Source: Verrucomicrobiota bacterium (lineage in GTDB: Bacteria; Verrucomicrobiota; Verrucomicrobiia; Chthoniobacterales; UBA6821). Taken from it: a stretch of 17,593 nucleotides of DNA. Each line of letters begins with the position of its first letter. Position 1 is the stretch's first letter. Shown here in pieces: positions 1 through 16,971 of the stretch. The notes under the pieces were generated by a model. It made no database searches and was not told where the DNA came from. It saw only the letters and a list, made by a program, of their open reading frames with translations. The stretch covers positions 1 to 17,593 of the forward strand of contig WBXG01000036.1 of the NCBI GenBank assembly GCA_008932965.1, given 5' to 3'. A program made the translations under genes and the position numbers.

Positions 1-128
1 AGGCAGGCGAGCATTTTGATGCAGGGCTGTATGTGTACATACTGCCCAAATCAAAATGGGAGTCTAACGCAGCATCTATCTGACTTCCCGGCTTCCGTAG
101 TAGATCAGTATGAAATATTCGGGCTAGC
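1..128 (+). mobile_element. palindromic MITE-like element, copy A (long form; left part cut by the window edge)
   Basis: Aligns base for base with the right half of copy D (6300-6434). The right terminus gatcagtatgaaatattcgggcta ends at about 127. Strand is defined relative to copy D. Confidence 0.85.
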
Positions 129-838
129 TCTCCAGGAGACTGTGGTGCAGGAGCTGTTATTGAAACCAAACAAGTAAACTCGGTATGATGGCGTTCCTGG
201 TCCGGAAGCGCTGCTGGTGATGCAACCGTAATGGAAACTACTGCTAGACCAGGAAAGAGAGCTCTAGCAATGGTAATAGAGGCTAGTGATACTATATTTT
301 TTCCTCTCAATGGATTCCGTGACTCTGCCAAGCTCATTTCGCTTACTGGTATTCCACACGCATCATAGGCGACAACATGCTTAGATGGAGTTGAGAGCTC
401 TACCCTAATGCAGTGACTGGCATGGTCCATCCAGTCAGAAGAGAGGGCAATCACTCCATTCGGAGAGGTGGCTCGGAGTGTCTCTATAATCCGTTGAGCA
501 ATAAAGATCGCATTCTCCTTTTGCTCCACTTCAAGACTCATGCGTTGAGCAGCAGGCCAGAGATAAAGCATCCCCAGAAGGATAATAGCAAGGAGGCTCA
601 AAGCGACGAGCACTTCTAACAAAGAGAAGGCTAACCCGCATATTTCATACTGATTCTGCTGCGGCTTGCGAACACCTGATGGATACTGCGTCAGCTTCGA
701 ATTGCTCCTCGGGCAGTATGAAACATACAGCCGTCGTCGCAATCCATCACCTTCCTTGTCTGCATCAGGATTAGCGGCGCCTCGCGACGAACCAGTATGA
801 AATATGCGGGCTAAAGAGAGTTCATTTCTTAGGAGCAT
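1..838 (-). CDS. prepilin-type N-terminal domain protein (type II secretion / type IV pilus minor-pseudopilin-like); partial, 3' end beyond the window
   Basis: Absent from the supplied ORF track because there is no stop in the window. My hand translation of the minus strand from ATG 838..836 is stop-free down to base 2. An in-frame stop lies just upstream at 853..851. It contains FSLLEVLVALSLLAIILLG, a prepilin-type hydrophobic helix with Glu at +5. Two repeat-element copies (631-814 and 1-128) sit in frame inside it. Confidence 0.55.
   Translation of the reverse strand, partial: MLLRNELSLARIFHTGSSRGAANPDADKEGDGLRRRLYVSYCPRSNSKLTQYPSGVRKPQQNQYEICGLAFSLLEVLVALSLLAIILLGMLYLWPAAQRMSLEVEQKENAIFIAQRIIETLRATSPNGVIALSSDWMDHASHCIRVELSTPSKHVVAYDACGIPVSEMSLAESRNPLRGKNIVSLASITIARALFPGLAVVSITVASPAALPDQERHHTEFTCLVSITAPAPQSPGELARIFHTDLLRKPGSQIDAALDSHFDLGSMYTYSPASKCSPA
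631..814 (-). mobile_element. palindromic MITE-like element, copy B (short form, 180 bp TA to TA)
   Basis: Terminal inverted repeats are ctaacccgcatatttcatactg (631-652) and cagtatgaaatatgcgggctaa (793-814). It is the same length as copy C and collinear with it apart from small compensating indels. The flanking TA dinucleotides are at 632-633 and 812-813. Confidence 0.85.
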
Positions 839-961
839 CCAAGCCTCATATCAGAACGAACCTGCTATTTCAATTTCAAAACGTGTATGGAAAGAGAAAA
901 TCTCATTCAACAGAAGTGCTTTTCACGTTTTTAGGTTAAAATTTTATTGGCGGAACTCTTG

Positions 962-3685
962 CTACTTCCATTCGTGTTTGGGATAGCGACGTGAAAGTTC
1001 TCCTCGAAGCTTGGGATAGGTCTCCTTCCAAAAAGAATTCAAATCAGAGGTGATTTGTATAGGACGTTTATTAGGAGCACATAATTCCAATATGACAGGG
1101 GCTCGATTACCGGCAAGAGGGGGGATCTTAGTAACTCCAAAGAGCTCTTGGATCAAGGCCTTAAGGATCACTTCACCGGTTGGTTTATAGCGTAGGCGTG
1201 CCTTACGTCCTGAGGGAAGGGGGTAAAATATGGGGGCATGTTTATCAAGGGCATGACGCTGAGCTGATGATAAGAGCATTTCAAGGGCTGCAATAACGGG
1301 TCGATCCTTGACTTCTCGGTAACTAACGGCTCCCTCACACCATCGTTCGAGGGCCCTTAAACGATCCTTCTGAGTCCATGTCGGTAATGCTAACTCTGGA
1401 TAAAAATGAACAACCCACCTAAGACGATCGACCCAAACATCAACCTCATCTCCCCAGGTAGGAAGCGGAAGATCTCCTTGAGCTAGCGCTTCAGCAAGAA
1501 CATGGCTTGCTTCTAGGGAGGGGGGAGCATCCTGCTGTATCGATTCTAATACAAGATCACGATAGATTTTCTCTTTTTTCCATACAACACGGTTTATGGA
1601 GGTATCAAAAAATAATTCTTTAGTCTCATGAAAATCGTTCGGAAAGAGATGTCGTAACATCGATTCATCAACGGCTGTTGCCATCGAGAGTTGGGTGCGG
1701 ACCTCGCCGCTTCCCTGACCAATTTCAGTGATTTCAGCAGCCACAAAAAGTCGACTCGAAGCAGCAGCACTCTCTTTAACTAAAAGGCCACGTCGTCCAT
1801 GAACGACATCTGAGAGATTTGTTCCTGCTCCACGTCGACGTGCTACTTGATCGGCAAATCCAAGAAGAATACATTGAGCAATCAGATCGTCAGAGGCAGG
1901 AGCGGTCTGCGTGTCAAGTCCTTGGGCATGTGCGAGGGAGCAAAATTGTTCAAAGATACGATTGGTTTGTCGTGCAGCATCAGCGTGGATAGCATATTTG
2001 CGGCACGAATCAGAGCGAAACTCATGACGCTTAGCCCAAGAAAAAACTCGGGAGAGAACAAGAAAATCGGAGGTCCCCCCTTCAAAAAGCTCCTGACGTT
2101 CTTCTTCGGTTTTTTTATCAGTTCTTAAAAGCAATGGACGAGATTGTGTGAGGGCTGCCATCAGGGCAATACTGCGAACACAGCCATATTCCTCGGCTGC
2201 TAAGAGCATCCGTGCGTAGCGGGGATGTGTTGGAAATGAGAGCATCCGTTTTCCTAGAGGGGTAATATTTTCCTGGAAATCAAGAGCTCCTAAATCCTTG
2301 AGAAGCTGCGATGCTTTTCCAAGCGCCTGCTCTTCTGGCTTGTCAAGCCACGCCATGGTTTCTATTTGAGAAAAATTCATAGCCTTGAGTGTTAGCAAGA
2401 CTTCTGATAAATCGACGCGTAGAATTTCTGGTGCTTCACGTGCAGGACGTCGTGCCTGATCCCGCTCTGTCCAGAGTCGAAAACAGTGACCAGGAGCAGT
2501 CCTTCCAGCTCGGCCTGCACGTTGATCTGCAGAGGCTCGACTAATTTTTTCAATGAGTAAGGTATTCATCCCACGTCGAACATCGAAACGAGCCATACGG
2601 GCAAGTCCGGCATCGACTACCCCAGTCACCCCATCGATAGTCAGGGAGGTCTCTGCAACATTGGTGGTAACAATAACCTTGCGGGCCTCTGTTGCTGTTA
2701 CAGCCGCGTCTTGATCGGCAGGAGAGAGTTCTCCATGCAAGGGAAAAAGAAGAATGGAGGAGGAGAGCTGAGATCGCAGGAGGTTAATAGTTTTTGAAAT
2801 TTCATAGGCCCCTGGCATGAAGACGAGGAGATGTCCAGAAGTGAGGTGAAGTAATTTCTCGACACCCTCGGCAGCCAGGTCCCACGGTTTTTCTCCTTCG
2901 GATTCACGGGTGAGGTAGTGAAATGTTACAGGATGAGTTCTTCCCGAGGAGCGAATTACCTCACATGGTTCTAAATAATCTGCCAAGGATGCGGTATCCA
3001 ACGTAGCCGACATCACGATGATTTTTAAATCAGGGCGATGATTTTTTTGTAATAGGAGTGCCTGCATCAAGCTGATATCGCTGTAAAGATGGCGTTCATG
3101 GAATTCATCAAAGAGCAAGGTGCTAACTCCCTCAAGATACGGATCAGTGAGCATTTGACGCATTAAGATTCCTTCAGTGACAAAGAGAAGGCGTGTGGAT
3201 GAACTGCATTGTTCATCATGACGGATGCGATACCCCACCTCATCACCCAGTCTTCCTTCTCTCTCCTGAGCAACACGGGCAGCAAGCATACGAGCTGCTA
3301 AACGACGTGGTTGCAAAATCATGGCTTTTTTCGATCCTAATATTCCACCATCAAGAAGCATTTGTGGAATCTGTGTCGATTTTCCAGATCCAGTGGGAGC
3401 CTCTACAATAAGACGGTTGCTAGCACTTAGGGTTGTTACGATTGATTCACGTAATTCCTCAATCGGAAGAGCACTGGGAGTTAACCCGGATATTTCATAC
3501 TGATCTACTACGGAAGCCGGGAAGTCAGATGGATGCTGCGTGGAGTTCGAGGTCTTCCTCGAGTAGTCTGTACACACACAGCCGTCGTCAGACTTCATCG
3601 CTCGCCTTGCCTCATCAGCCTTCACAGCCTCCTGGTCAAGATCAGTAGGAAATATCTGGGTTAATGAAAATTGAGAATGTGCCAT
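962..3685 (-). CDS. hrpB: ATP-dependent RNA helicase HrpB (DEAH-box family)
   Basis: 907-aa ORF. Motifs: APTGSGKST (Walker A), DEFHER (motif II), SATL, TNVAETSLTIDG, QRAGRAGR. The C-terminal tail ...SFWKETYPKLRGELSRRYPKHEWK matches the tail I remember from E. coli HrpB. Codons 9-68 are contributed by repeat copy C. Confidence 0.9.
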   Translation of the reverse strand: MAHSQFSLTQIFPTDLDQEAVKADEARRAMKSDDGCVCTDYSRKTSNSTQHPSDFPASVVDQYEISGLTPSALPIEELRESIVTTLSASNRLIVEAPTGSGKSTQIPQMLLDGGILGSKKAMILQPRRLAARMLAARVAQEREGRLGDEVGYRIRHDEQCSSSTRLLFVTEGILMRQMLTDPYLEGVSTLLFDEFHERHLYSDISLMQALLLQKNHRPDLKIIVMSATLDTASLADYLEPCEVIRSSGRTHPVTFHYLTRESEGEKPWDLAAEGVEKLLHLTSGHLLVFMPGAYEISKTINLLRSQLSSSILLFPLHGELSPADQDAAVTATEARKVIVTTNVAETSLTIDGVTGVVDAGLARMARFDVRRGMNTLLIEKISRASADQRAGRAGRTAPGHCFRLWTERDQARRPAREAPEILRVDLSEVLLTLKAMNFSQIETMAWLDKPEEQALGKASQLLKDLGALDFQENITPLGKRMLSFPTHPRYARMLLAAEEYGCVRSIALMAALTQSRPLLLRTDKKTEEERQELFEGGTSDFLVLSRVFSWAKRHEFRSDSCRKYAIHADAARQTNRIFEQFCSLAHAQGLDTQTAPASDDLIAQCILLGFADQVARRRGAGTNLSDVVHGRRGLLVKESAAASSRLFVAAEITEIGQGSGEVRTQLSMATAVDESMLRHLFPNDFHETKELFFDTSINRVVWKKEKIYRDLVLESIQQDAPPSLEASHVLAEALAQGDLPLPTWGDEVDVWVDRLRWVVHFYPELALPTWTQKDRLRALERWCEGAVSYREVKDRPVIAALEMLLSSAQRHALDKHAPIFYPLPSGRKARLRYKPTGEVILKALIQELFGVTKIPPLAGNRAPVILELCAPNKRPIQITSDLNSFWKETYPKLRGELSRRYPKHEWK
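3481..3664 (-). mobile_element. palindromic MITE-like element, copy C (short form, 180 bp TA to TA), inside the hrpB 5' coding region
   Basis: TIRs are ttaacccggatatttcatactgatc (3481-3505) and gatcagtaggaaatatctgggttaa (3640-3664). The TA dinucleotides are at 3482-3483 and 3662-3663. It aligns with copy B directly, and with copies A and D as its reverse complement. Confidence 0.9.
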
Positions 3686-3724
3686 GATGTATTAAATCAA
3701 CATTGTTATTTTTATCCTAGAAAA

Positions 3725-3744
3725 TGTGAAATATTCGGGCTAGC
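3725..3744 (+). repeat. solo terminus of the same element family
   Basis: tgaaatattcgggctagc (3727-3744) is identical to the terminus of copy A at 111-128. I found no partner end or internal element sequence next to it. Confidence 0.6.
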
Positions 3745-3778
3745 GCAAATATTGCATGATCTGTTATTTTGTACCGTT

Positions 3779-4636
3779 ATGTTGATCTCGCTAAGAACAC
3801 TTTCCATTTTTCTTTTCCTTGTTCAGCTGGGTTATGCCTTTGGTTCCAAAAAAAATAGCCCTCCTTCGTCTTTGAATACCGGTCAAATGCAAGGAGCTCT
3901 TTATGTCGATGCACTTAGTGTTCCCTCCCCTGGAGAATTTTTTGCCTCCATCAATAAGGTGAGTCGACCCAATTGGACAACATTAGATCATGGAGGCAAT
4001 GCTCCCGTAACAACCAATCGTGCTCAGCTTGCTCTGGCTATAGGGGTTTTTGTTACCAATGGTTTTATTGCCGTAGAGGCTCAGGATGGACAACAGGTGA
4101 AAAATATGGGGCGTGATATGATGGCACTCTCTAAAGCCTTAGGAGTGAGTCAAACTATTCTAAGTCGAGGTAATAACCTCGTCGATTTTGCTGATGATGA
4201 TCAATGGGATCCCCTGCGTAACGAGCTGGAAGCCACAGAAAATGAAGTGAAGAGTACGATGCTAGGTCAACAAGATCACTATCTCATTACATTAATCTCT
4301 GCAGGGTCCTGGTTGAGGGAGATCGAGATTGCCTCTGAAATTATTGTGAATCACTACTCGCAACGTGGAGCTGCTCTTCTTCAAGAGCCAGCCTTGGCAT
4401 TCCACCTAGCCTCCGAATTAGAATCACTCCCAGAAAAATTACGCACCGATCCCTTAGTGCTCAATGTCAAAGAGACCTTGAATCATTTAGCAACACTTCA
4501 AAAAAAGGAACCCTATGGTTTAACAAAAGAGGATCTTGGGGTTTTGCAATTAGAAATCAAAAAAATAGTTGCTTCCATTAGCGCTTCCGATGCATCTCCT
4601 CTTTCCTCAAAACCTGCTTTACCCCCTGCTTTATGA
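3779..4636 (+). CDS. hypothetical secreted/envelope protein with an N-terminal signal peptide
   Basis: The ORF track gives 3671..4636. I prefer the in-frame ATG at 3779 because MLISLRTLSIFLFLVQLGYAFGS looks like a signal peptide, and the upstream extension is read through a repeat remnant (RKCEIFGLA). I recognise no family motifs. Confidence 0.6.
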   Translation: MLISLRTLSIFLFLVQLGYAFGSKKNSPPSSLNTGQMQGALYVDALSVPSPGEFFASINKVSRPNWTTLDHGGNAPVTTNRAQLALAIGVFVTNGFIAVEAQDGQQVKNMGRDMMALSKALGVSQTILSRGNNLVDFADDDQWDPLRNELEATENEVKSTMLGQQDHYLITLISAGSWLREIEIASEIIVNHYSQRGAALLQEPALAFHLASELESLPEKLRTDPLVLNVKETLNHLATLQKKEPYGLTKEDLGVLQLEIKKIVASISASDASPLSSKPALPPAL

Positions 4637-5106
4637 TGAAAAAAATAGTGTATCTTTTCCTAGGATTGTTGGTGGCTACAATCCCATCCCAAGCTGGAGA
4701 GAGGCCCTTTGCTCTCTCTGATAATGTTGCCGTGGCCAAAGAAAATGGACGCCGGCTCGCACAGGCTATAACCCATGATGGATTTCGAGTCAGAGAGAGT
4801 GATTGGGTTGTTTCTTTAAAACCTCAAGAGCCTCATCTCTTACGGGTAACCTTGTTTGCAGGAAATCAATATTGGTTTATTGCTGCAGCCTCTCCTCCTG
4901 CTCTCGTGCTACTAATAACCTTGTACGATAGCACAGGCAAGCCGATCAAAGGCGATCGCCTCAAAGAAGAGCCTGCTGTTTCTGGTGCTAGAACTGCAGT
5001 AGGGCTCACCGCTCCTCACAGCGGCAACTATTTTGTCAAATTAGAATTATTGAAATCTCAAGGAAAGCTACCCGCCGAGACCTACCTCGCCTATGCCTAT
5101 AAGTAG
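4633..5106 (+). CDS. hypothetical small secreted protein (signal peptide, probably beta-rich)
   Basis: 157-aa ORF. The N-terminus MMKKIVYLFLGLLVATIPSQAGE is signal-peptide-like. Its ATG overlaps the upstream stop (ATGA at 4633-4636), which implies translational coupling with 3779..4636. Confidence 0.6.
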   Translation: MMKKIVYLFLGLLVATIPSQAGERPFALSDNVAVAKENGRRLAQAITHDGFRVRESDWVVSLKPQEPHLLRVTLFAGNQYWFIAAASPPALVLLITLYDSTGKPIKGDRLKEEPAVSGARTAVGLTAPHSGNYFVKLELLKSQGKLPAETYLAYAYK

Positions 5107-8100
5107 AGAGCTTGTGTATCCGGGTTAACCCGATAGAGGCTTGGAATCACTGCTGCGGCCATCGTGTCAATAGGGAGCTCTCTTTTTAGAAAATGAGCAA
5201 TGGAACGGGCTGCTTGATGGGGGTCTTGAACTACAGAACTATACTCTAAGCAAAGAAGAGGCCAGTTAGCATGATCAATATGCTCTGCCATCGTGATTTC
5301 GTAATGGCGATAGACGTTATAAAGCTGATCTACTGTTGCAATCGACCCAGCCATACGATGTTGTGATGTGATTACCTCCTGAAGAGAGCGGCGCATCCAA
5401 ATGATCCTATAATGGTTCTGTGCGGGGAGATTTAAAGCGAGAGGGATGACCACTTTGGTAGCTCTTCCGGCTTTGAGAAAGAAGGCTTCTTGTGACATTG
5501 TTTTCACCTTCTCGTGTTCAAAATACCCATTGGGATTATGTTCATCAGGGCAGCGATGATAATCTGTATTAATGGCGATCCCGCCTGCTGCGAGCATCTG
5601 CATCATCAATGATGTTCCAGAGCGAGGGAGTCCAGTCACAATAATAGGTCCCTGATTTGAGGAAAGCCTTGAGGAGCGCTTAGGGGAAAGCTTGGTGGAA
5701 AGCTTGGGGGAAATCCTCAAGGAAGATTTTTTTTGGAGAGAAGAAATTTTTTTTATAGGAGATGAATGAAATCCAAGAGCGCTCTGCAAATTTATTTTTG
5801 CCTTCTCTGACTCACAATGATACTGCAAGGCTTGACTTGGATTATTTTTTCCATCCAACGCAATATGAGCAAGAAGTCTGAAAGCATCACTGCGATAAAG
5901 AAAGCTCTTTGAGGCCTCCTGAGCTGCTTTCCAAGCAGCACTCCAGCGACCTTGATGTGAGAGTGAGGTGGCTAATGCAAGCCAAGAAAAACGATGTAAT
6001 GGATTTCGAAGGATCGCCTCACGGGCACATTCTTCTGCCTCAAGAGGCTTCTTTTTTTTATTATAGTAGATTGCTAAGAACGCTAGTGCATCGGCCTCCT
6101 CGTGGCGTACCTTGGCAACATTGCGCAGGAGGGCAACACCTTTTTTCTCCGTGCGATAGGCTAACCCGGATATTTCATACTGATCGTGTCGAGGGAGCTG
6201 AGAAGGTTGATGGGGCACCACCGGCGGTCGGGAGACCGCAGGGGGACTGCCGAAGACTTCCTTTAGGCAGCCCTGAAAGGACGAGAGGAGTGGGAGCGAG
6301 CGAGTCAACGCAGACACGTATTTTGACGCAGGGCAGTAGGAGTGCATACTGTCCATGTCAAAATGGGAGTCTAACGCAGCATCCATCTGGTTTTCCGAAC
6401 TCGGTAGGTGATCGGTATGAAATATCCGGCCTAGGGCAAAGAGGCCTGCATTGAACTGTGCAGCACTATCCTCAGGATGTGCATGGGCATAGGTCAGTAG
6501 TAATTCAAGATCCTCGCTTTTGGAATGAGCCAAAAAGCGAGCTGAAGTTGCTATGAAGTTAATTTTCTCTTCATCAAGAGTAGCACGTGCCATCAGATGA
6601 CGTATCTCCCAAGCTTCTTGAAAAGAAATAGTTTTATTGGTAGAGGAATCTGCTTTTTCCCAAAATTGTCGTAGCGCTTGTTTGGCATCACGTCGACGAT
6701 AGCGTGCAATGTGATAAAAACATGTTGCAGCACGACGCCTTTCTCCCACAAGAAGGTAAGCTGTTGCAAGTTCCTCTAAGATGTCCGTCCGTAATAAAGC
6801 CTGTCCTGCTTTTCTTGCAGCACTACGGGCCTGTTCTAAAAGAGGAATTGCCTGATCAAGACGATCATCATGAAGAAAGGAGAGTGCAAGGTGAAAGATC
6901 TCATTGCAGTGAGCCTCTTGAATAGCTGCCTGTTTATTGAAGGGAATTTCTTGTAAATAACCCAGAGAGACCAGTTGACGTAATGCTGCTTCTGTAGATT
7001 CTGGGGAGGGGGTTGAGGGGCTCCAAGGAGCTTTCCAAAAGCCGTCCCACGAACTAATTTTTTTGATAATTGGTTTTTTAGAAAAAGATTTGAGAAGTAC
7101 TTTTCCAGGCATATCCCTTCCTATTGGCAACCCTGCAATTGCAAGTAATGTGGGGCAGAGATCCAAAATAGTGGCATGATGGATAGCAGCTCCTTGGCGT
7201 ATTTGTGTTCCCTTCATGATGAGCGTCCCGATAGGGGCATGCTGATGCGTTGGTGCTGTCTCTTGAATTCCTAAAGAGCTTGGTCTGCGAGCATCATGAT
7301 AAAACCCATGGTCTGATGCGATCACAATGGTAGACTCCTCTCCAGCAGCTTCTACGAGCTCTCCAATCCATCGATCATAGAGTTCATAAGCGCGATCTAC
7401 CACTTCTCCATAAAGTTCACAGTCGCGTGGTTTTTCTCCAGGCAATGCAGGTTCTCGGTAACACATGGCCAAATGAGAGAGACTATCAAGCCCCACGAGA
7501 TAAAGAGAGGTAAGATCCTGCCTTTTCCTCCTCATCAAGTGCAAGGTCACTTGGAGTGTGGTGAGATCCTCTGCAAGAATTTTAGCAATAGCAGCTACTC
7601 TGAAATCGGTGGTGGGATCAATTTCATAAAGTTTGGGAACGAGGAAGCGCAGGAGCGCTTCAGACAATTGCTGAGGATGTACACGGTCTTGTGCAATTAT
7701 TTTAGAAAGGGACCATGGAGAGACACTTTTAGGGGGAATGCTCCATGGTTCATGGGAGGGATGATGAGCGATACGAAATGTTTCATCGATCATAGCCCCT
7801 CTGATTTTTTCAGCAGGAGCAGTTGTCCACCATCCCACTATGGTGGACGTTTTTTTATAATGAGAGAACATATTCCAAATCGCTGGAGAGCGTCGTGAAG
7901 TCCTATCATAAGGCCTCAAGCCCATTCCCGAATGATCAGCATAGGTAAACCCAGTAATTCCATGTTCATAAGAGTGCTTTCCGGTTCCTATTGTTGCCCA
8001 AAGTGCTGGTGAGAACAGGGGAGAAATCGATCTTAATGGACCGCTGACACCATGGGTAACCATCTTTGATAGATGAGGTAATTTTCCGGCAGCGATTTTT

Positions 8101-8216
8101 AAAGAGAGTAACTCCCAGTCAGCAGCATCTAATCCGATAAAAAGAATTGGTGACATAAAAAGAAGAGGTGTTTTTATATGATTGCGAAGAAATTTTCTAT
8201 CTTCTATATTCACCAC
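5097..8216 (-). CDS. tri-domain protein: alkaline-phosphatase-superfamily (type I phosphodiesterase/nucleotide pyrophosphatase-like) domain + TPR repeats + C-terminal sulfotransferase domain
   Basis: 1039-aa ORF. The N-terminus LFIGLDAADWELL...GKLPHL...SPALWATIGTGKHSYEHGI and IASDHGF are typical of AP-superfamily phosphodiesterases. The middle is helical and TPR-like. The C-terminus has GLPRSGTSL (5'-PAPS-binding loop) and IIWMRRSLQEVITS (3'-phosphate-binding motif) of sulfotransferases. The GTG at 8216 is the maximal start. The ATG at 8156 (MSPILFIGLD...) is probably the real one. Repeat copy D is in frame within the TPR region. Confidence 0.75.
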   Translation of the reverse strand: MVNIEDRKFLRNHIKTPLLFMSPILFIGLDAADWELLSLKIAAGKLPHLSKMVTHGVSGPLRSISPLFSPALWATIGTGKHSYEHGITGFTYADHSGMGLRPYDRTSRRSPAIWNMFSHYKKTSTIVGWWTTAPAEKIRGAMIDETFRIAHHPSHEPWSIPPKSVSPWSLSKIIAQDRVHPQQLSEALLRFLVPKLYEIDPTTDFRVAAIAKILAEDLTTLQVTLHLMRRKRQDLTSLYLVGLDSLSHLAMCYREPALPGEKPRDCELYGEVVDRAYELYDRWIGELVEAAGEESTIVIASDHGFYHDARRPSSLGIQETAPTHQHAPIGTLIMKGTQIRQGAAIHHATILDLCPTLLAIAGLPIGRDMPGKVLLKSFSKKPIIKKISSWDGFWKAPWSPSTPSPESTEAALRQLVSLGYLQEIPFNKQAAIQEAHCNEIFHLALSFLHDDRLDQAIPLLEQARSAARKAGQALLRTDILEELATAYLLVGERRRAATCFYHIARYRRRDAKQALRQFWEKADSSTNKTISFQEAWEIRHLMARATLDEEKINFIATSARFLAHSKSEDLELLLTYAHAHPEDSAAQFNAGLFALGRIFHTDHLPSSENQMDAALDSHFDMDSMHSYCPASKYVSALTRSLPLLSSFQGCLKEVFGSPPAVSRPPVVPHQPSQLPRHDQYEISGLAYRTEKKGVALLRNVAKVRHEEADALAFLAIYYNKKKKPLEAEECAREAILRNPLHRFSWLALATSLSHQGRWSAAWKAAQEASKSFLYRSDAFRLLAHIALDGKNNPSQALQYHCESEKAKINLQSALGFHSSPIKKISSLQKKSSLRISPKLSTKLSPKRSSRLSSNQGPIIVTGLPRSGTSLMMQMLAAGGIAINTDYHRCPDEHNPNGYFEHEKVKTMSQEAFFLKAGRATKVVIPLALNLPAQNHYRIIWMRRSLQEVITSQHRMAGSIATVDQLYNVYRHYEITMAEHIDHANWPLLCLEYSSVVQDPHQAARSIAHFLKRELPIDTMAAAVIPSLYRVNPDTQALYL
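6161..6434 (+). mobile_element. palindromic MITE-like element, copy D (long form, 270 bp TA to TA), inside the tri-domain enzyme CDS
   Basis: TIRs are ctaacccggatatttcatactgatc (6161-6185) and gatcggtatgaaatatccggcctag (6410-6434). The TA dinucleotides are at 6162-6163 and 6432-6433. The ends align with copies A, B, C and E. It carries about 90 bp of extra internal sequence compared with B and C. Confidence 0.9.
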
Positions 8217-8230
8217 GCCAATGAAATAGT

Positions 8231-9364
8231 ATGCACGTAATTTCTTTTCTTGAACACCTTTGGTTAGAAAATTCTCATATAAAATTGGGCTGTGTTGATG
8301 TCTTTGAAGCAGGTAAAGGATATCTTTTTGCGGACAAACAGTTCGATAAGCTCAAAGAATGGGATCTCTCCATTCCCTTTGAAAAGGTTTCTAAAGTAGA
8401 ACCGATGTTCAAACCGATGCGTTATTCCGAGCATGGGCCTAAAGGAAAAGTGCTCATTTATAACGGTGTCGGAGGTATGGGTGACCAAATTATGACATGG
8501 CCATTAGCAAAAATTCTTGCTGATCGGGGCTATGAAGTACACATCCTCTCAGAACACCATTTAGCAATGTTTTGGTATGGCTTTCCATGGATTAAATCAA
8601 TTCTAATTTTACCCTGCTACTGGTCTGTGCTCGAGAACTTCGACTACCATCTTAATTTAGAATATATTTCCAATGGCTATGCACATAGTGATCAGATGCA
8701 ACCAATCGATCTTATGCTTCAACTATGTGGGATTGATCCTGAATCGATTCCAGATGAAGAGAAGCGTCTTGCCCCTCGATTTACGAAAATGGAAATGGGA
8801 ATTTCCCAGACTCTCTACTCTAACAGGCGTTTAGGTTTTTACCAAATCGCGTGCTCTCAACAAATACGTTCCTTGCCTCCTGAACTGAGTCGCCGTGTTT
8901 TTAAAGCGCTTGCAGAGGCTTTTCCTAATATTTACTGGATCGGTCTCTATGGACCTCTAGAATCCTCCGAATATTGGCTTAACCCTCTGGGACCATCCAA
9001 TGCTGAATTTCGTTCCTTTGAGCGGCCTCGGCTGATGTGGTCAATGATTCAACGAGCAGAGATTTGTGTTGCCCCCGACTCGATGCTTGTTCATATGGCA
9101 GGTGTTTTAGATAAGCCTTGTGTTGGTTTGTGGGGGCCCTATGGACCAGAATCACGTGTAAAATATTATCCCAACCATTATCCGATTCATCACAAAGCAG
9201 TATGCCCTCTGTCGCCGTGTCATTGGAATGCTGTTCAAATGCCACATATCTGTCCTCCAACAGAAAAACCATTAGATCGATGCCAAGTAATGCTTCAAAT
9301 AACCCCTGAAGAAGTTGTTGAGGCAGTGCGTCAGCTTGTTCCATCTTTGGAAACAATGAAGTAA
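8231..9364 (+). CDS. glycosyltransferase family 9 (heptosyltransferase-like)
   Basis: 377-aa ORF. KVLIYNGVGGMGDQIMTWPLAKILADRGYEVHIL resembles the GT9 N-terminal (I/L)GD motif region. APDSMLVHMAGVLDKPCVGLWGPYGPE resembles the GT9 nucleotide-sugar-binding motif (NDSGxxHLAAAxGxPxVxLFGPT). The Cys-containing tail ...CQVMLQITPEEVVEAV is also GT9-like. The start is uncertain; in-frame Met codons at 8405 and 8417 are alternatives. Confidence 0.75.
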   Translation: MHVISFLEHLWLENSHIKLGCVDVFEAGKGYLFADKQFDKLKEWDLSIPFEKVSKVEPMFKPMRYSEHGPKGKVLIYNGVGGMGDQIMTWPLAKILADRGYEVHILSEHHLAMFWYGFPWIKSILILPCYWSVLENFDYHLNLEYISNGYAHSDQMQPIDLMLQLCGIDPESIPDEEKRLAPRFTKMEMGISQTLYSNRRLGFYQIACSQQIRSLPPELSRRVFKALAEAFPNIYWIGLYGPLESSEYWLNPLGPSNAEFRSFERPRLMWSMIQRAEICVAPDSMLVHMAGVLDKPCVGLWGPYGPESRVKYYPNHYPIHHKAVCPLSPCHWNAVQMPHICPPTEKPLDRCQVMLQITPEEVVEAVRQLVPSLETMK

Positions 9365-9470
9365 AAGAAAGTTTTGACAACGCTTACCGTTGTGATCAAT
9401 AAAATGTGATGTATTGCAGTTAAATTTTTTTCTCAGGTGATTCCAACCTAAAACCAAATCGTGATTTGCG

Positions 9471-9905
9471 ATGAATATAAAAAACCAACCTACTGCTCAG
9501 CAAGACATCACTATTTCTAGTCGACAGCTCGAGTCTCTTTATGCACTTGGCTTTGAGCTTTATGGTGCAGGAGAATTTGAAAAAGCTGCGGATCTATTTC
9601 GACTCCTATGCTTGTACGACCCAGAAAAGTCACGCAATTGGATTGCTCTTGGTGGAGCTAATCAACAGAGGGGAGAATATCAGTTAGCCATTGCTGCTTT
9701 TGTGATGGCCTCGTTTCAGGAACCCCTGAGTCCTGAACCAAGATTATATGCAGCTCATTCCTTTATTGATCTTATGGATTTGTCTGCAGCGTTGGAGGCC
9801 ACCAAACAGGCATTAGAACTTTGTGAAAAGCGAGATGATAAAAAAGAAGTCCAATCCCGAGCCGCTTCCTTATTACAAGCACTTGAGTCTTATACCCAAA
9901 AGTAA
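9471..9905 (+). CDS. type III secretion class II chaperone, LcrH/SycD/CesD family (TPR)
   Basis: 144 aa. LESLYALGFELYGAGEFEKAADLFRLLCLYDPEKSRNWIALGGANQQRGEYQLAIAAFVMAS...PEPRLYAAHSF matches, position by position, the Yersinia SycD sequence as I remember it (LEQLYSLAFNQYQSGKYEDAHKVFQALCVLDHYDSRFFLGLGACRQAMGQYDLAIHSY...PRFPFHAAEC). Size and TPR layout also fit. Confidence 0.75.
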   Translation: MNIKNQPTAQQDITISSRQLESLYALGFELYGAGEFEKAADLFRLLCLYDPEKSRNWIALGGANQQRGEYQLAIAAFVMASFQEPLSPEPRLYAAHSFIDLMDLSAALEATKQALELCEKRDDKKEVQSRAASLLQALESYTQK

Positions 9906-9923
9906 AATCACTGAAATACTACT

Positions 9924-10880
9924 ATGAGCAATGCATCACCTGTTCCTTCCGGACAATCACCTAGTCCTGCACCATTATCTACTCCTGATGTAAATGATAG
10001 ACAACAGCAGCTCTCTGGCCAGGATGTCTTAAGTGATCAGAAAGCGCCAGAATCTGTCTCAAAAAAACCAAATCTTACTCAGATTTCGAATGTCCCTGGA
10101 TCATTAAATGATGTCTATAACAGCTCTATAACTCATCTACCAGACCCCTCGTTAACACTGAGTGGAGAAGATATTATAAGTTTATCAGTATGGAGCAACG
10201 ATTCTCTTAATAGTGATGGAACTCAAGCAGCTAACAACACTGCTGCATCTGGTATCCTGGCAATTCAAGAGGTATGTCTTCAAAATCAGAAGCGTATAGA
10301 AGTTAACTATAATGACCCTGGGGCGACTCATCAAGATGTAACCCCTCAATTTCAGCAAAAAATAGGTGCTCAGAAAAAAGGTGTTACCCTGCCTTCTGTT
10401 CCTCCAACAGCCAATAGTCCGCTTCCAGGTCATCAACTATTGAAATTACTAAATAACTATATTTCTCAGAAAAGCTCTGGGACTCTTTCCATCTCTACAT
10501 TTAGCTCCTCACAAATAATCAGTAGTGAACTATACTTAGATCTACTAATAGGAGAGTCTAATAATCAGTCTTCGCTTAATAGCCTCAACGTTCAAACAGC
10601 AAGTCAAAGGCATGTTAGTTCAAAGAGGATGCTAGATTCGGAAGGTAGCATGAAAAGTGCTGTTTCTGAGCATTCTAAAACTGATAGCAGAGGAGCTGCA
10701 AAACAGATTGAATCATCCTCCTTTTCTACTACTCAATCTTTGAAACGAGGTTCTGCTGCTGGCTCTCCAGCTACTACTTCAGTAAACCCAATAAACGTTT
10801 CACAAGCTTTAAAAAAAGGCTTTGGAACTCTTTCAATAGTAACGGCTCAACTTCGCCCCAAGCCCTTAGGGCCTACCTAG
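9924..10880 (+). CDS. Ser/Thr/Asn/Gln-rich low-complexity protein; candidate type III secretion substrate
   Basis: 318-aa ORF starting 19 bp after the chaperone gene on the same strand. The N-terminus is Ser/Pro-rich and looks disordered (MSNASPVPSGQSPSPAPLSTPD...). I see no obvious transmembrane helix and no recognisable catalytic motif. Confidence 0.55.
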   Translation: MSNASPVPSGQSPSPAPLSTPDVNDRQQQLSGQDVLSDQKAPESVSKKPNLTQISNVPGSLNDVYNSSITHLPDPSLTLSGEDIISLSVWSNDSLNSDGTQAANNTAASGILAIQEVCLQNQKRIEVNYNDPGATHQDVTPQFQQKIGAQKKGVTLPSVPPTANSPLPGHQLLKLLNNYISQKSSGTLSISTFSSSQIISSELYLDLLIGESNNQSSLNSLNVQTASQRHVSSKRMLDSEGSMKSAVSEHSKTDSRGAAKQIESSSFSTTQSLKRGSAAGSPATTSVNPINVSQALKKGFGTLSIVTAQLRPKPLGPT

Positions 10881-10926
10881 AAATTGAAAAATTCATTTCT
10901 TTAATAGGAGAGAAAAAAGAGATGCC

Positions 10927-10962
10927 TAGCCCGGATACTTGTAGTAGCCCGGATACTTGTAA
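10927..10962 (+). repeat. tandem duplication of an 18-nt unit resembling the element terminus
   Basis: tagcccggatacttgtag (10927-10944) is followed directly by tagcccggatacttgtaa (10945-10962), 17/18 identical. The first 14 nt match the family terminus tagcccgaatattt at 12/14. Confidence 0.6.
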
Positions 10963-11152
10963 ATGTCATTTTATAACTCATGAAAGCCCCTTGTGATCGT
11001 GCCTAGAAGGAAATAATGTTTTTTCAAGTTCGGAATTTAAGATGAAGTTCGAGTAATAAACACAACACTGTTTTTTATCTTTCTTAGTTTTTTGTTGCTC
11101 TTATGAGCAATCTATGGAATGTTCATCGCCTCACTTTTATTTTTTATCTTTC

Positions 11153-11470
11153 ATGTCTTACGCAATTATTAAAACAGGTGGCAAACAGTACCGTGTTACC
11201 GAGGGTGATATCCTTGATGTTGAAAAACTCGATATTGAGCCAGGACAGTCGACCACCTTTAGTGATGTTCTTATGGTTGCTGATGGAAGTAATGTAACCT
11301 TTGGTTCTCCTTTTATTGCCAGTGCTTCTGTGCAAGCTGAGGTTGTCGATCAATGGAAAGGTGAAAAAGTCATTGCTTTTAAATTTCGACGTCGTAAGGG
11401 ATATCATCGAACAGTGGGCCATCGTCGTCGTCTCACTAAACTCAAAATTACTTCGATTTTGAGTAAATAA
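11153..11470 (+). CDS. rplU: 50S ribosomal protein L21
   Basis: MSYAIIKTGGKQYRVTEGDILDVEKL... and ...FKFRRRKGYHRTVGHRRRLTKLKI are canonical L21 sequence. The ORF-track start at 11114 adds 13 unlikely residues, so I chose the ATG at 11153. Confidence 0.9.
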   Translation: MSYAIIKTGGKQYRVTEGDILDVEKLDIEPGQSTTFSDVLMVADGSNVTFGSPFIASASVQAEVVDQWKGEKVIAFKFRRRKGYHRTVGHRRRLTKLKITSILSK

Positions 11471-11509
11471 TTAACTCTCTTTTCAATTTAGTTAACTTCA
11501 ACTTATTTT

Positions 11510-11761
11510 ATGGCTCATAAGAAAGGTCAAGGAAGCGTCAAAAATGGACGCGATAGTCAAAGCAAACGACTCGGTGTAAAAAAGTTTGGTGGTGAATCTG
11601 TCATTGCTGGTAATATCATTATTCGCCAACGTGGTACTAAGTTTCTTCCAGGTCGCAATGTTGGTCTAGGGCGTGATTACACCATTTTTTCACTAGTTGA
11701 TGGTAAAGTCCTCTTTGATCGTGCAGGTCGACGCGTTAATGTAGAGCCCGTTTTAGTATAG
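11510..11761 (+). CDS. rpmA: 50S ribosomal protein L27
   Basis: [29 protein letters not shown]...[32 protein letters not shown] is canonical L27 sequence. It starts 39 bp downstream of rplU. Confidence 0.95.
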
Positions 11762-11899
11762 TTGTACGACCCAACCGTTCGATTGTTACCTTACTGTTCA
11801 GAGGTAAGAAAGCACTCAAAAGAGTTCTTTTTTTGAAGACTCATTTTGCTTTTTGACTTTAGATGGCTATCCCATGCTGATCTCGCTGTTTGTATAGTC

Positions 11900-12198
11900 T
11901 TTTACACGAATATTCCATGCTCCATCTATTACATATTATGGAAAGCTCTATGGCTACTGCGTTGTTCTTGAATTGTAATTTGGAGAGGGCACTTCACATA
12001 CAACCTGGCGTCAAACTTCTCATCTGCATTAACTCGCTCGCACCCACTCGTCTCACCCTTACAGGGCTTCCTAAGAGGCTTCCTAAAAGTCTTACTAAGG
12101 GGCAGTCTCTCCCCCCCCCGCGGTTTCCCGACCGACGGTGGTACCCCATTTGATTCCGCAGCCTCTTCGTCACGATCAGTATGAAATATGCGGGTTAA
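11900..12198 (-). mobile_element. palindromic MITE-like element, copy E (long form, intergenic, one end decayed)
   Basis: Its reverse complement aligns along copy D, from ttaacccgcatatttcatactgatcgtgacgaagaggctg... through ...gggtgcgagcgagttaatgcag. The intact terminus is at 12174-12198. The other end (about 11899-11922, cttttacacgaatattccatgctc) is degenerate. It contains a C9 run at 12111-12119. Confidence 0.75.
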
Positions 12199-12257
12199 AT
12201 TGAAAAGGGTAGGTAACAAGCCTCCCTTTTGCCCTACGATTCCACACAACTATACCC

Positions 12258-12869
12258 TTGAAGCAAGTTACTCCACTTAAGCTCGCTATCTTAGGTTCAG
12301 GCAAGGGCTCTAATGCACGAGCCCTCATTGAAGCATCGAAGCAATCCAAGCTGTACTATGAAACCGTTCTTCTCATTACGGATATTCCCCATGCTGGGAT
12401 ATTAAGGTTAGGTGAGGAATTTCAAATCCCTGCTTATTTTTTTAGCCCAGGTCCATTTAAAACCAAATTTGCACCGGAGCGTGAACAGGAGCTTGTCACC
12501 CTTCTTCGCGAAGCCAAGGTCGATTTTATCGCTCTAGCAGGATTCATGAGAGTGATTAAGGAACCCCTTCTTGCTGCATTTCCAAAACGTATTTTAAATA
12601 TTCACCCTTCGCTCTTGCCGCATTTTCCAGGACGAGAAGCATGGGAGCAAGCCATCGATGCAGGAGCTCGTGAAAGTGGTTGTACGGTTCACCTGGTGGA
12701 TCACGGTATTGACACTGGGGAGATTTTAGGACAGGAATCTGTACCTATTTTTCAAAATGACACAGCTAATACTCTTCATCTCCGGATTCAAGAGGCTGAA
12801 CACAGGCTCTATCCTTGTATTGTGAATACTGTTGCAAAAACGCTTTTACAAAAAAAGAGTCATTATTAA
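12258..12869 (+). CDS. purN: phosphoribosylglycinamide formyltransferase
   Basis: LAILGSGKGSNARALIEA, ALAGFMRVI, NIHPSLLPHFPG and GCTVHLVDHGIDTGEILGQ are the PurN formyltransferase motifs. The start is TTG at 12258. Confidence 0.9.
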   Translation: MKQVTPLKLAILGSGKGSNARALIEASKQSKLYYETVLLITDIPHAGILRLGEEFQIPAYFFSPGPFKTKFAPEREQELVTLLREAKVDFIALAGFMRVIKEPLLAAFPKRILNIHPSLLPHFPGREAWEQAIDAGARESGCTVHLVDHGIDTGEILGQESVPIFQNDTANTLHLRIQEAEHRLYPCIVNTVAKTLLQKKSHY

Positions 12870-12920
12870 AACTCAATCCCAAAGTTGAGAATGGTAATTT
12901 TAGAATTTTAAACCTATTTC

Positions 12921-14915
12921 ATGTCTCGTTTTCGTCTTTTTGATCTCAACCCTGAGCAATACCGCGCTGCAACTCATCCCGAAGGAGCACTACTCATTCT
13001 AGCTGGAGCAGGAACAGGTAAGACCCGTGTTCTCACGGCACGAATCGCCTGGCTTGTATCCCAAGGAGTTGATCCTAGCTCGATCTTGGCAGTAACCTTT
13101 ACGAATAAAGCAGCGCGAGAAATGAGGGAACGAATCACTACGATTCTTGGAGCTGAAAAAACAAAGGCCATGACCCTTTCTACGTTTCATTCCCTCTGCG
13201 TTCGCCTCTTGAGGCGTGATGCCCCCCTTCTAGGATACAAAGAAAACTTTAGTATCATGGATGAATCAGACCAAATGGGATTGATTAAAAAAATAGCCGG
13301 TCGCATTCATGATTCTCAAGATCCGATCAATCCTGAGGGCGCACGCGCCATGATCAGCAAGGTTAAAAATCTTTCTGCATCAACAAGCACCATGTCAACA
13401 GCAGTAGAGAGCCTTTTTACTCGGTATCAACAAGAGCTACGGTCACTTAATACAATGGATTTTGATGATTTGTTGCTTTATGCCCGTGAACTGCTTGTGG
13501 ACCATGAAGCGGTACGCCTCTTTTGGCAACAGCAGTACCGCTACATTCTCATTGATGAATTCCAAGATACGAATAAGCTTCAGCTCGATTTCATGAGCCA
13601 ATTGGTTGGTAAGCAGATGAATCTTTGTGTTGTTGGAGATGATGATCAAAGTATCTACGGGTGGCGAGGTGCTCAACGTTCTAATCTACTTGAATTGGAA
13701 CGTTATTTTTCTAATCCCGAAATCATTAAACTCGAGCAAAACTACCGTAGTACGCATCTTATTCTTTCGGCTGCCAATCGACTGATTCAACACAATGCCC
13801 ATCGCTACGAGAAAAATTTGTGGAGTGATCAAAAAGAGGGAGATCCTATCCGACTCCTAAGTAGCGCTGATGATATGACTGAGGCAGAATTTATAGCTGA
13901 TGAAATAAAGGCCCTCGGTTCTGAGAAATGGGATCACAGTGCCATCCTCTATCGTATGAATGCACAATCACGCATCTTTGAAACCATGCTGCGAGAAAGA
14001 AAGATTCCTTATCGTGTCGTGGGTGGAAAAAGTTTTTTTGACCGTCGTGAAATACGTGATGTCATGGCTTATCTCACCGCCCTGCTCAATCCTGATGATG
14101 ACAATGCACTCTTAAGAGTTTTGGCTGCTCCTCCACGTGGTATTGGAAAGGTAACATTACAACTTTTACTTGAAACTTCCATTAAACAAAAATCTTCTTT
14201 CTCCTCAGTGATCCTAGATCCAGAGCAACGTCATGATTGCTCGACAAAAACTGCTGAAGCTATCGTACGCTTTGCTGAGGATTGGGGTGCCTACCAAATT
14301 CGTTTACAAACACCGGGCCAGGATCCTGCAATGTTACTCGATGAAATATTGAAAGAATGTGGCTACAACGAAGATTTAAGAAAATCATGTAAAACACCAG
14401 AAGAGGCAGATCAACGAGAAACTAATGTTCGAGAGTTGCTCGAAAGCATGGGTGACTTCTGTCAGAAAAACCGCCGCAATGGAGCTCAACAATTTCTCGA
14501 TACTATGTCACTAGAGAGAGAAAAAGCTGAAGAGAAAGAAGAGCGTCATGGAGTGACTTTGATTACCTTGCATGCTGCTAAGGGACTAGAATATGAATTT
14601 GTCTACCTCGTTGGACTCGAAGATGGACTGCTTCCTCATGAACGCTCTAAAGAGGAAGGAAATATCGAAGAAGAGCGACGACTCTGTTATGTCGGTATGA
14701 CACGAGCCAAAAAAAAATTAACGATGACTTATTGTCGTACGCGAAAAAAATATGGAACGATTCTCTCCTGTACACCGAGCCCCTTTCTTTTGGAATGTGC
14801 TGGTGAGGGTGTCGAAGAGACAAGTATCGAAGAAATTTTAACCCGCCCCTTAGAAGAAGCCGATGTTAATGATGCCTTTGCCTCGATGCGAGCATTGTTA
14901 AACCTAGAAGAATAA
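12921..14915 (+). CDS. UvrD/PcrA/Rep-family ATP-dependent DNA helicase (SF1)
   Basis: 664 aa. Motifs: AGAGTGKTRVLTARIA (Walker A), ILIDEFQDTN, VGDDDQSIYGWRGA, LEQNYRS, ITLHAAKGLEYEFVYLVG, EEERRLCYVGMTRAKKKL. Confidence 0.9.
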   Translation: MSRFRLFDLNPEQYRAATHPEGALLILAGAGTGKTRVLTARIAWLVSQGVDPSSILAVTFTNKAAREMRERITTILGAEKTKAMTLSTFHSLCVRLLRRDAPLLGYKENFSIMDESDQMGLIKKIAGRIHDSQDPINPEGARAMISKVKNLSASTSTMSTAVESLFTRYQQELRSLNTMDFDDLLLYARELLVDHEAVRLFWQQQYRYILIDEFQDTNKLQLDFMSQLVGKQMNLCVVGDDDQSIYGWRGAQRSNLLELERYFSNPEIIKLEQNYRSTHLILSAANRLIQHNAHRYEKNLWSDQKEGDPIRLLSSADDMTEAEFIADEIKALGSEKWDHSAILYRMNAQSRIFETMLRERKIPYRVVGGKSFFDRREIRDVMAYLTALLNPDDDNALLRVLAAPPRGIGKVTLQLLLETSIKQKSSFSSVILDPEQRHDCSTKTAEAIVRFAEDWGAYQIRLQTPGQDPAMLLDEILKECGYNEDLRKSCKTPEEADQRETNVRELLESMGDFCQKNRRNGAQQFLDTMSLEREKAEEKEERHGVTLITLHAAKGLEYEFVYLVGLEDGLLPHERSKEEGNIEEERRLCYVGMTRAKKKLTMTYCRTRKKYGTILSCTPSPFLLECAGEGVEETSIEEILTRPLEEADVNDAFASMRALLNLEE

Positions 14916-15012
14916 AGAAGATATCCAGAGATAGAGCATGTTCCAAAGTGAACCAGTGTTAAAACTAGATTTTTAGCTCTTCCGGGATCTGTTGCAACTA
15001 CACAAAAAGTAA

Positions 15013-15033
15013 CGGGTGATCGGTATGAAATAG
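15013..15033 (+). repeat. short remnant of the element terminus
   Basis: gggtgatcggtatgaaata matches the right end of copy D (aggtgatcggtatgaaata, 6406-6424) at 18 of 19 positions. The flanking sequence does not align with the element. Confidence 0.45.
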
Positions 15034-15091
15034 GAGAGATCCATGATATTTTTTGTTTTATGTTGGTGAGCCTTCTCATACTGTGAGTCCT

Positions 15092-16282: not shown

Positions 16283-16338
16283 TTCAACTCTCTTCTCACG
16301 GGCTAGATCAGCTCCTCCTATTTACTTAAAAAAACGAA

Positions 16339-16971
16339 ATGCACAAAAATATGATTTCTCTTTTTCTCTACGGACTACTCCCATGGCTCCTGATCATGCT
16401 ATTACTGCAGAAAAAAATTCTTAAGAATCGGTTTTTTAGCTCTCCTGGTATTCTTTTTTTTGCTATAGGCGTTTTTGTTGCAGGAATGTTGCTTCTTCCG
16501 ATTAGAGGATTCTCCTTGCTTGTCTGGAGTGCTAGCTTAATGGGTGGGGTGAGCGTCCCACTGGTGGGCTTATTACTCGTGCTCATCATGGAAAAGTTCT
16601 TTTCCTGCACTCTTTTCTCAGCTTGGGAGTGGAGAACAACATGGATTTTTGGAATGCTTAGTAGCCTTATTTTATATCCAGCAGCACTGGGTCTAGGTCC
16701 AATCGATCCTTATTGCTGGGGTTGGGGGAATAACCTTTTTTTAATAGTGATCGCAATTCTTACTTTTTTTCTCCTCGTTACTAAAAATCGTTTTGCCATC
16801 CTAATACTTTTAGCTCTAGCCGCATTTGATTTTCAGCTCCAAGAAACAACCAATCTCTGGGATTATCTCATTGACCCGATTTATGCTGTGCTCGCACTGG
16901 TAATGGGTATGAGATCTCTTTTTTTTAACGAGGAGCCACAGGAGCCCCATTTTCAACTTCTCTTTCGATGA
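16339..16971 (+). CDS. hypothetical polytopic inner-membrane protein
   Basis: 210-aa ORF with about six hydrophobic helices, for example LFLYGLLPWLLIMLLL, ILFFAIGVFVAGMLLL, GVSVPLVGLLLVLIM and LFLIVIAILTFFLLV. I do not recognise the family. Confidence 0.5.
   Translation: MHKNMISLFLYGLLPWLLIMLLLQKKILKNRFFSSPGILFFAIGVFVAGMLLLPIRGFSLLVWSASLMGGVSVPLVGLLLVLIMEKFFSCTLFSAWEWRTTWIFGMLSSLILYPAALGLGPIDPYCWGWGNNLFLIVIAILTFFLLVTKNRFAILILLALAAFDFQLQETTNLWDYLIDPIYAVLALVMGMRSLFFNEEPQEPHFQLLFR

Follow-up and report, generated by a model that had tools for sequence, protein, structure and literature searches.

What becomes of a pilin-type gene when a mobile element lodges inside the leader peptide that it encodes? 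The question is raised by a 17,593-nucleotide stretch of DNA from a Verrucomicrobiota bacterium of the order Chthoniobacterales (contig WBXG01000036.1 of assembly GCA_008932965.1, positions 1 to 17,593 of the forward strand; hereafter the window). Positions 631 to 814 of this window are one copy of a nonautonomous transposon, a transposable element of the miniature inverted-repeat type (MITE), which adds 180 bp to the leader of a pseudopilin-like gene on the minus strand. We lean toward an account in which the gene's original start codon is still used, the element is read through, and the lengthened leader is then removed, which would leave the insertion nearly neutral.

Position of the insert in the gene

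Read on the minus strand from the proposed start codon, ATG 838 (836..838), the open reading frame (ORF) gives MLLRNELSL, a 60-residue insert (ARIFHTGSS...QQNQYEICGL), and then AFSLLEVLVALSLLAIILLG..., and it stays open up to the window edge, exactly as the initial annotation of this DNA had translated it. The element entered at TTA/G without shifting the frame and separates Leu(-2) from Ala(-1) in a signal of class III, the prepilin type (a slash within a sequence marks an insertion or cleavage point). The ends of the insert are inverted repeats (632-656 and 789-813) that are 92% complementary; its 176-bp core (635..810, with terminal inverted repeats at 635-655 and 790-810) supplies the 60 in-frame codons on the minus strand. 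On either side of the core lies a target-site duplication that reads CTAA on the plus strand and, at the upstream copy in gene orientation (811..814), TTAG on the gene strand; the Ala(-1) codon opens with the gene-strand G of the downstream copy (631..634). The initial annotation had described a TA duplication, and the TA is indeed present, but the duplication extends over 4 bp of the form YTAR.

Excision of the insert in silico gave MLLRNELSLAFSLLEV and a net insert of 180 bp, as first proposed. What is left is a short leader before a prepilin-type helix with Glu at +5, resembling the element-free homologue P0004 (MKLRFTHG/FSLFE); the ancestral leader was short. The element takes the leader from 10 residues to 70, in keeping with the earlier estimate of about 10 to about 70, and Phe+1 becomes residue 71. 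The nine original leader codons, MLLRNELSL, occupy 812..838 and have MLLRNNRSL as their counterpart at the orthologous locus L008; the ATG and MLLRN are kept in L008, L009, and L101, and a GAGG Shine-Dalgarno-like motif stands at 844-847, 5 nt 5' of ATG 838. The signal core spans 557..631 on the minus strand (Ala(-1) at 629-631, Phe+1 at 626-628, Glu+5 at 614-616, then a hydrophobic helix). Between the gene and hrpB is an intergenic region (839..961, minus strand) in which alignment of the window with L008 revealed a conserved block directly 5' of ATG 838, presumed to be the site of expression signals. A promoter and terminator consensus scan of positions 1-1100 was uninformative; the sigma-70 consensus had no match on the gene (minus) strand and a single match on the plus strand, at 160-189.

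A mobile, frame-neutral element family

The insert in the leader, copy B, is one of five copies (A to E) in 17.6 kb. Terminal inverted repeats in this family are 21 to 25 nt long, and the same terminal repeat, TAACCCGGATATTTCATACTGATC, was found in all copies; it occurs 7 times in the window at ≤3 mismatches and 0 times in 200 shuffles. An exact scan of one genome per species placed it in more than 86 stretches, nearly all from four Chthoniobacterales ("Spartobacteria") metagenome-assembled genomes (MAGs) of freshwater or soil origin. Genomes of freshwater Chthoniobacterales (Verrucomicrobiota) carry the family in abundance. A Saprospiraceae match (L030) was set aside, as its repeat is unpaired and it fits the ~4 chance matches calculated for a 19-base pattern in that collection.

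Across ~700 kb of fetched loci, a sample biased toward element-bearing loci because they were chosen for containing the repeat, we counted 117 left/right repeat pairs; 182 bp was the commonest length (n = 50), and the net length was a multiple of 3 in 74 of the 117. In 75 of 101 copies the same 4-mer flanks both ends (TTAA 41, CTAG 21, CTAA 10, TTAG 3), whereas by our own calculation about 27% would match if the ends were independent. A TA duplication as in Tc1/IS630 had been assumed at first and was discarded in favor of YTAR after this 4-mer analysis. That the element is mobile is shown by empty sites for copies D and A: at copy D, one TTAG in the L008 orthologue stands in place of the window's CTAG-element-TTAG, and copy A is absent from its L008 orthologue. 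Empty sites for copy B are seen in more distant homologues only, such as L096. The 176-bp core contains no transposase gene, the encoded peptides have no Pfam or NCBIfam match, and Rfam gave no family match anywhere in the window. A full-length parent insertion sequence (repeat pairs 0.5 to 3 kb apart) was absent from the ~700 kb of loci, although MAG assemblies often lose full-length insertion sequences. Apart from an identified parent, the element has the defining features of a MITE.

The family is also frame-neutral, in that canonical (182-bp) copies add exactly 60 codons and most of them are free of stops on either strand in the phase that reads YTA as Leu. This phase (phase 1) is open in 39/50 and 36/50 canonical copies, depending on orientation, while all 50 are closed in phases 0 and 2 by TAR or TGA in the terminal repeat; we calculate that 60 random codons would stay open about 6% of the time. 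In either orientation the encoded peptides start with L-(A/T)-R-I-F-H-T-D and end with Y-E-I-(S/C)-G-L, and 28 of the 50 canonical copies lie within ORFs, here meaning open frames rather than gene calls, that have at least 100 flanking codons.

The host gene encodes a GspI/PilV-like minor pseudopilin

By motif, fold, and context, the interrupted gene is pilin-like, a GspI/PilV-like minor pseudopilin and not a GspI equivalog. Its body comprises 168 codons (128..631, minus strand), as supported by the AlphaFold2 fold, the ratio of nonsynonymous to synonymous substitution rates (dN/dS; see below), and family-model matches. The class III signal pattern is present as A/FSLLEVLVALSLLAIILLGMLYLW, with Phe+1, Glu+5, and a hydrophobic stretch. 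With the insert removed, the first 55 residues matched PilV (4.9e-8), ComGE (2e-6), and XpsI/GspI (~1e-3), all below the curated cut-offs. TIGR02532 scored 15.6 bits after excision and 13.7 bits with the insert against a cut-off of 16.3, and N_methyl (PF07963) scored 16.3 bits against 21.2. The equivalog models also fell short (GspI [TIGR01707], 18 bits versus 44; NF047828, 19 versus 150; PilV, 33 versus 52); we therefore call the gene GspI/PilV-like rather than GspI.

A profile search of 1.84 billion representative proteins returned 159 relatives, most of them ~160 to 215 residues long. Among aligned family members (n = 30), F+1, L+3, and E+5 are invariant, and the element-free ones have leaders of 4 to 26 residues; matches were to XpsI (23), GspI (21), Verru_Chthon cassette protein B (20), and TIGR02532 (14, at E ≤ 0.01). 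The residue at -1 is Gly in 16 of the 30 and Ala in 14. The initial annotation had treated the Ala at -1 as a caveat to processing, a concern that falls away given these counts and a review according to which class III leaders end in Gly or Ala (PMC10191384). AlphaFold2, run on the family alignment, predicted a helix (4-54) followed by a beta sheet of seven strands, the lollipop shape of pilins, at a predicted local distance difference test score (pLDDT) of 95.7; no solved structure matched the head (globular) domain. In a model of a 302-residue protein with the element-coded segments included, the core has pLDDT above 90, and residues 1-69 and 237-302, which the element encodes, form a low-confidence coil (pLDDT 42 to 60). 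The pilin assignment in the initial annotation is thus borne out: models of minor pilins and pseudopilins match both the protein and its family, albeit below threshold for the window protein itself, and the predicted fold is that of a pilin.

The gene is the first of an I-J-K-like set downstream of hrpB. In L008, gene 2 encodes a J-like protein of 226 residues (MKKSA/FTLLE; TIGR02532 18.8 bits, above the 16.3 cut-off), gene 3 encodes a GspK-like protein of 942 residues (GspK match 3.9e-6), and a GspE ATPase gene is nearby (7.8e-150). The closest element-free homologue, P0004 at locus L096, is followed by the same J-like and K-like genes. No prepilin peptidase gene lies within the window. A search of metagenome contigs with the pseudopilin alignment yielded no confirmed relative; exact matching found no record for the window's HrpB protein or for P0160 (the 302-residue protein), and for the 157-residue neighbor protein only a 2.7-kb contig.

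Orthologues and alleles at the leader site

The L008 orthologue (68% protein identity, dS ~1.0) carries an element at the same site and has the same ATG and the conserved upstream block. Comparison of the window with L008 gave dN/dS values of 0.20, 0.25, and 0.16 for the pseudopilin gene and its J-like and K-like neighbors, respectively, which indicate purifying selection on the host gene. Strains 97 to 99% identical to the window hold three alleles at the leader site, adding 180, 180, and 273 bp; each is present in several assemblies, and all are open from the same ATG. A second assembly also contains the complete window allele (P0160); the L009 allele (P0158), found on 6 contigs, has a copy of a different subfamily; and allele P0154 (333 residues), found on 4 contigs, joins a P0158-type copy to a 93-bp partial copy, for a 101-residue leader. 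P0153 and P0155, considered as disrupted leader alleles, were rejected because they are in fact an unrelated intergenic copy that had been clustered through the element peptide. The suggestion that this site is unusually tolerant of insertion now has comparative support from the diverged lineage with the same site filled, from the open alleles, and from further element-bearing prepilin leaders (see below).

The alleles at the leader site are mosaic. In a comparison of window 631-814, L008 9880-10060, and L009 50-231, the left half of the L008 copy matched L009 and its right half matched the window. In its right half, copy B shares 91% identity with its L008 counterpart, versus 55% for host third codon positions, and copy C is 88% identical, versus 68% at third codon positions. 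Comparison of the copies suggests gene conversion among them as the most economical account of both the mosaics and the low divergence, the alternative being repeated insertion at the same TTAG. The window's element subfamily is found again at different sites in another species (L022, L039).

Alternative explanations

We then weighed other ways of reading this locus, the first of which is that the start codon lies inside the element, so that the MITE itself provides the start and a shorter leader and the nine upstream codons are an untranslated relic. In favor of this reading, the ATG of the L008 K-like gene lies within the repeat-derived sequence ATGTTTCATACAGAT, and N-terminal copies in L048, L066, and L020 have no upstream start codon at all. 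Gene callers picked internal starts in P0003 (MQYPSG...), P0156, and P0159, and the window copy has an in-frame TTG (the Leu of GDGLRRR) 7 nt after AAGGAAGG. The internal starts, however, differ among the three alleles (TTG in the window, ATG or GTG elsewhere in L009 and L008), with none conserved, whereas ATG 838, the GAGG motif, and the MLLRN codons are conserved; the window TTG is, moreover, buried in a strong hairpin. We consider an internal start unlikely.

That hairpin is the basis of a second alternative, in which the element acts at the RNA level: the hairpin would block or attenuate translation, or be cut by RNase III, and expression of the operon would be lowered, regulated, or slowly inactivated. 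The RNA of copy B is predicted to fold over its full length at -87 to -90 kcal/mol with a perfect stem of 26 bp (z -5.3 and z -7.6 in two computations), and the alleles of the window lineage range from -87 to -98 kcal/mol (z -7.6 to -10, ~26-bp perfect stem). The weaker hairpin of the older-looking L008 allele (-65 kcal/mol, z -2.5) would fit selection against the hairpin, and Correia elements in Neisseria mRNAs are RNase III substrates. Yet genes 1 to 3 are intact and under purifying selection in all alleles and lineages, and the hairpin starts 25 nt past the ATG, beyond the ribosome's initiation footprint. The family also resides in many long ORFs, including hrpB and the phosphodiesterase/sulfotransferase gene that has Pfam domains on both sides of the copy, and we regard an effect of this kind as improbable.

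A third alternative places the start downstream of the element, at TTG 620-622 or GTG 611-613, and would yield an unprocessed, membrane-anchored protein without Phe+1. The deposited GenBank annotation (P0002, DVB29_04960; MLVALSLL...) starts at GTG 611-613, inside FSLLEV, which removes Phe+1 and Glu+5. In L008, however, the TTG is TTA and the GTG is ATT, and the window's next Met (residue +20) is Ile. From Ala(-1) to +10, the substitutions that separate the window from L008 comprise 7 synonymous and 2 conservative ones, which marks these codons as translated, and F+1 and E+5 are invariant in the family. No downstream start is conserved, and translation must therefore begin within or upstream of the element; downstream initiation, for example at the TTG within FSLLE, had been named in the initial annotation as the outcome that would overturn it. 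Comparative data indicate that the deposited start is wrong, and we judge a downstream start very improbable.

An assembly artefact of the repeat, affecting the insert or its internal sequence, is hardly credible: assemblies do break at this repeat (the window begins in copy A and L009 ends in a copy) and the leader-site alleles are mosaics of other copies, but the window allele is full length in a second assembly, the L009 and 333-residue alleles recur on 6 and 4 contigs, and the same subfamily sits at other sites in another species, for which reason a chimeric assembly of the mosaic interior of copy B was rejected.

Proposed fate of the lengthened leader

Prepilin leaders are cytoplasmic, variable in length, and cleaved on the cytoplasmic face after Gly or Ala (PMC10191384), and an in-frame insert 5' of Ala(-1) would for that reason be discarded on maturation. 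In the account that we favor, transcription and translation would proceed from the original signals, with initiation at ATG 838, and the ribosome would pass through the element to make a 70-residue leader that, like prepilin leaders in general, would remain cytoplasmic. Cleavage by prepilin peptidase between Ala70 and Phe71 would then release an unaltered mature pseudopilin, making the insertion nearly neutral, while gene conversion would keep copy B similar to the other copies. The mature protein is probably unchanged by the insert, which would explain why the insertion has persisted.

Several points weigh against this account. Initiation at ATG 838, cleavage at A/F, and gene conversion are inferred steps. 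A 70-residue leader is far beyond the 4 to 26 residues of the aligned family, and we know of no leader of 70 residues that is processed. The hairpin (~-87 kcal/mol as computed) begins 9 codons after the start and could impede translation or attract RNase III. The window protein is just below the curated cut-offs of the prepilin-motif models, and the open frame through copy B carries little weight, given that most of the family's copies are open in any case. Finally, the element is much less diverged than host synonymous sites; it may therefore postdate the split of the lineages, which would make dN/dS averaged over the whole branch less informative. Even for the pilin leaders that one review calls "very long," the description is qualitative only (PMC10191384).

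Elements in other prepilin leaders

Copy B is not the only element of this family in a prepilin leader. The K-like gene of L101 (4685-4960) reads MFEITE-L[60 aa]L-KEHSSG...ISGS/ALLMVLV, with an element in the leader, where the element-free K-like leader of L096 is MRVHSSGS/ALLLV; in L008 (11266-11400), the ATG of the K-like gene described above falls within terminal-repeat-derived sequence directly 3' of the gene 2 stop. At L058, from another species (a Kiruna MAG), an unrelated GspJ-like prepilin gene (G/FTLLE; TIGR02532 20.8 bits, above cut-off) has on the minus strand (~nt 610-985 of the reverse complement) a MITE copy 45 codons before G/FTLLE, with no in-frame start between. P0008 (L097, 37% identity) has a 17/24 repeat-like match at 691-714, in the leader LTRIFQKEG/FSLLE, that may be the footprint of an old copy.

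This recurrence supports a permissive leader, within a sample biased to element-containing loci. A broader reading, which we offer tentatively and hold slightly short of even, is that class III leaders are a recurrent safe harbor for in-frame mobile elements because they are cytoplasmic and cut off; leaders of 70 to ~115 residues that are mostly MITE sequence, several-fold the length of those in element-free family members, would still be processed, and in the L008 lineage a MITE would have been co-opted to provide the start and the whole leader of the GspK-like protein.

Other copies in the window

Copy A (<1..127) is cut by the contig end; its CTAG duplication is at 124-127, and it is inserted in the same pseudopilin ORF, four codons short of the stop and in frame. 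L009 and P0160 contain it in full, the latter ending ...SPGE-L[60 aa]L-ALRI. Copy A lengthens the C-terminus of the pseudopilin by ~60 residues and, unlike the leader, would remain on the mature protein. Copy C (3481-3664) follows codon 8 of the minus-strand hrpB helicase ORF (962-3685), in frame (MAHSQFS-L[60 aa]L-TPSALPIEEL), and is common to the L008 hrpB orthologue, which has an additional 105-bp partial copy. Copy D (6161-6434) is a long form of 270 bp (90 codons) in a phosphodiesterase/sulfotransferase ORF of 1039 residues, in frame between the tetratricopeptide repeat (TPR) and sulfotransferase parts, with Pfam domains on both its sides. Copy E (~11,900-12,198) is intergenic, between rpmA (L27) and purN, and its left repeat is degenerate; at the closely related loci L001 to L006, the distance from rpmA to purN differs by as much as 60 bp. 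Isolated half-repeats at 3719-3742 and 15018-15041 (GTGAAATATTCGGGCTAG and GATCGGTATGAAATAGGAGAG) resemble remnants of more copies. The window starts inside copy A, and L009 likewise ends inside a copy (L009 1631-1749); contigs that start or end within copies indicate that the repeat fragments metagenome assemblies of this clade.

Significance and relation to known systems

Should a 70-residue leader indeed be produced and cleaved off, prepilin peptidases would tolerate leaders far exceeding in length those of element-free relatives, and a cleavable, cytoplasm-facing leader would be a near-costless place for selfish DNA inside a gene. The position of the element in a cleavable leader thus yields a specific, testable prediction about the tolerance of prepilin peptidase. 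On the practical side, the repeat breaks metagenome assemblies and misleads the annotation of start codons, as with the deposited protein that begins inside the prepilin motif. Within the literature searched, we found no description of this element family or of a MITE in a prepilin leader.

The host protein resembles the minor pseudopilins and pilins (GspI/XpsI, PilV, ComGE, and Verru_Chthon cassette protein B) in its (G/A)/F-x-x-x-E motif (cleavage before F) and hydrophobic helix, its length of ~170 residues, the predicted lollipop fold, the J-like and K-like genes next to it, and the nearby GspE ATPase. It differs from them in equivalog scores far below the cut-offs, a head domain without a solved match, and a leader of 70 residues rather than 4 to 26.

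As for the element, IS5 targets YTAR and produces a 4-bp duplication (PMC5009759), and the present family likewise duplicates a 4-bp YTAR. The shared duplication points to an IS5-type transposase as the mobilizer, although the loci examined contained neither a transposase gene nor a full-length parent bearing these terminal repeats. Like the Correia elements of Neisseria and other prokaryotic MITEs, the family is nonautonomous, ~100 to 300 bp long, bounded by terminal inverted repeats, and present in high copy number; it also has a TA-containing target duplication and forms RNA hairpins once transcribed. Correia elements, however, are mostly intergenic and duplicate TA only, whereas this family duplicates YTAR and has a large share of intragenic, in-frame copies.

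The closest parallel in behavior is with the Rickettsia palindromic elements (RPEs) (Ogata et al. 2000), in-frame repeats within genes (reviewed in PMC10969869). Both families consist of short palindromic repeats that recur many times within protein-coding genes of unrelated kinds, always in frame and with a preference for permissive positions, and that contribute a conserved peptide while sparing the host gene. The lack of an Rfam match and the different phylum are indications against homology, and the resemblance is in behavior only. Unlike RPEs, the present family has clear terminal inverted repeats of 21 to 25 nt with a 4-bp YTAR duplication, is fixed at 60 codons, and has one open phase common to both strands; its host belongs to a free-living freshwater lineage, whereas that of RPEs is obligately intracellular. 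The family is a second, independent example of RPE-style life inside genes, from free-living freshwater Verrucomicrobiota, and since it bears clear transposon hallmarks that RPEs lack, the origin of such elements should be easier to study in it.

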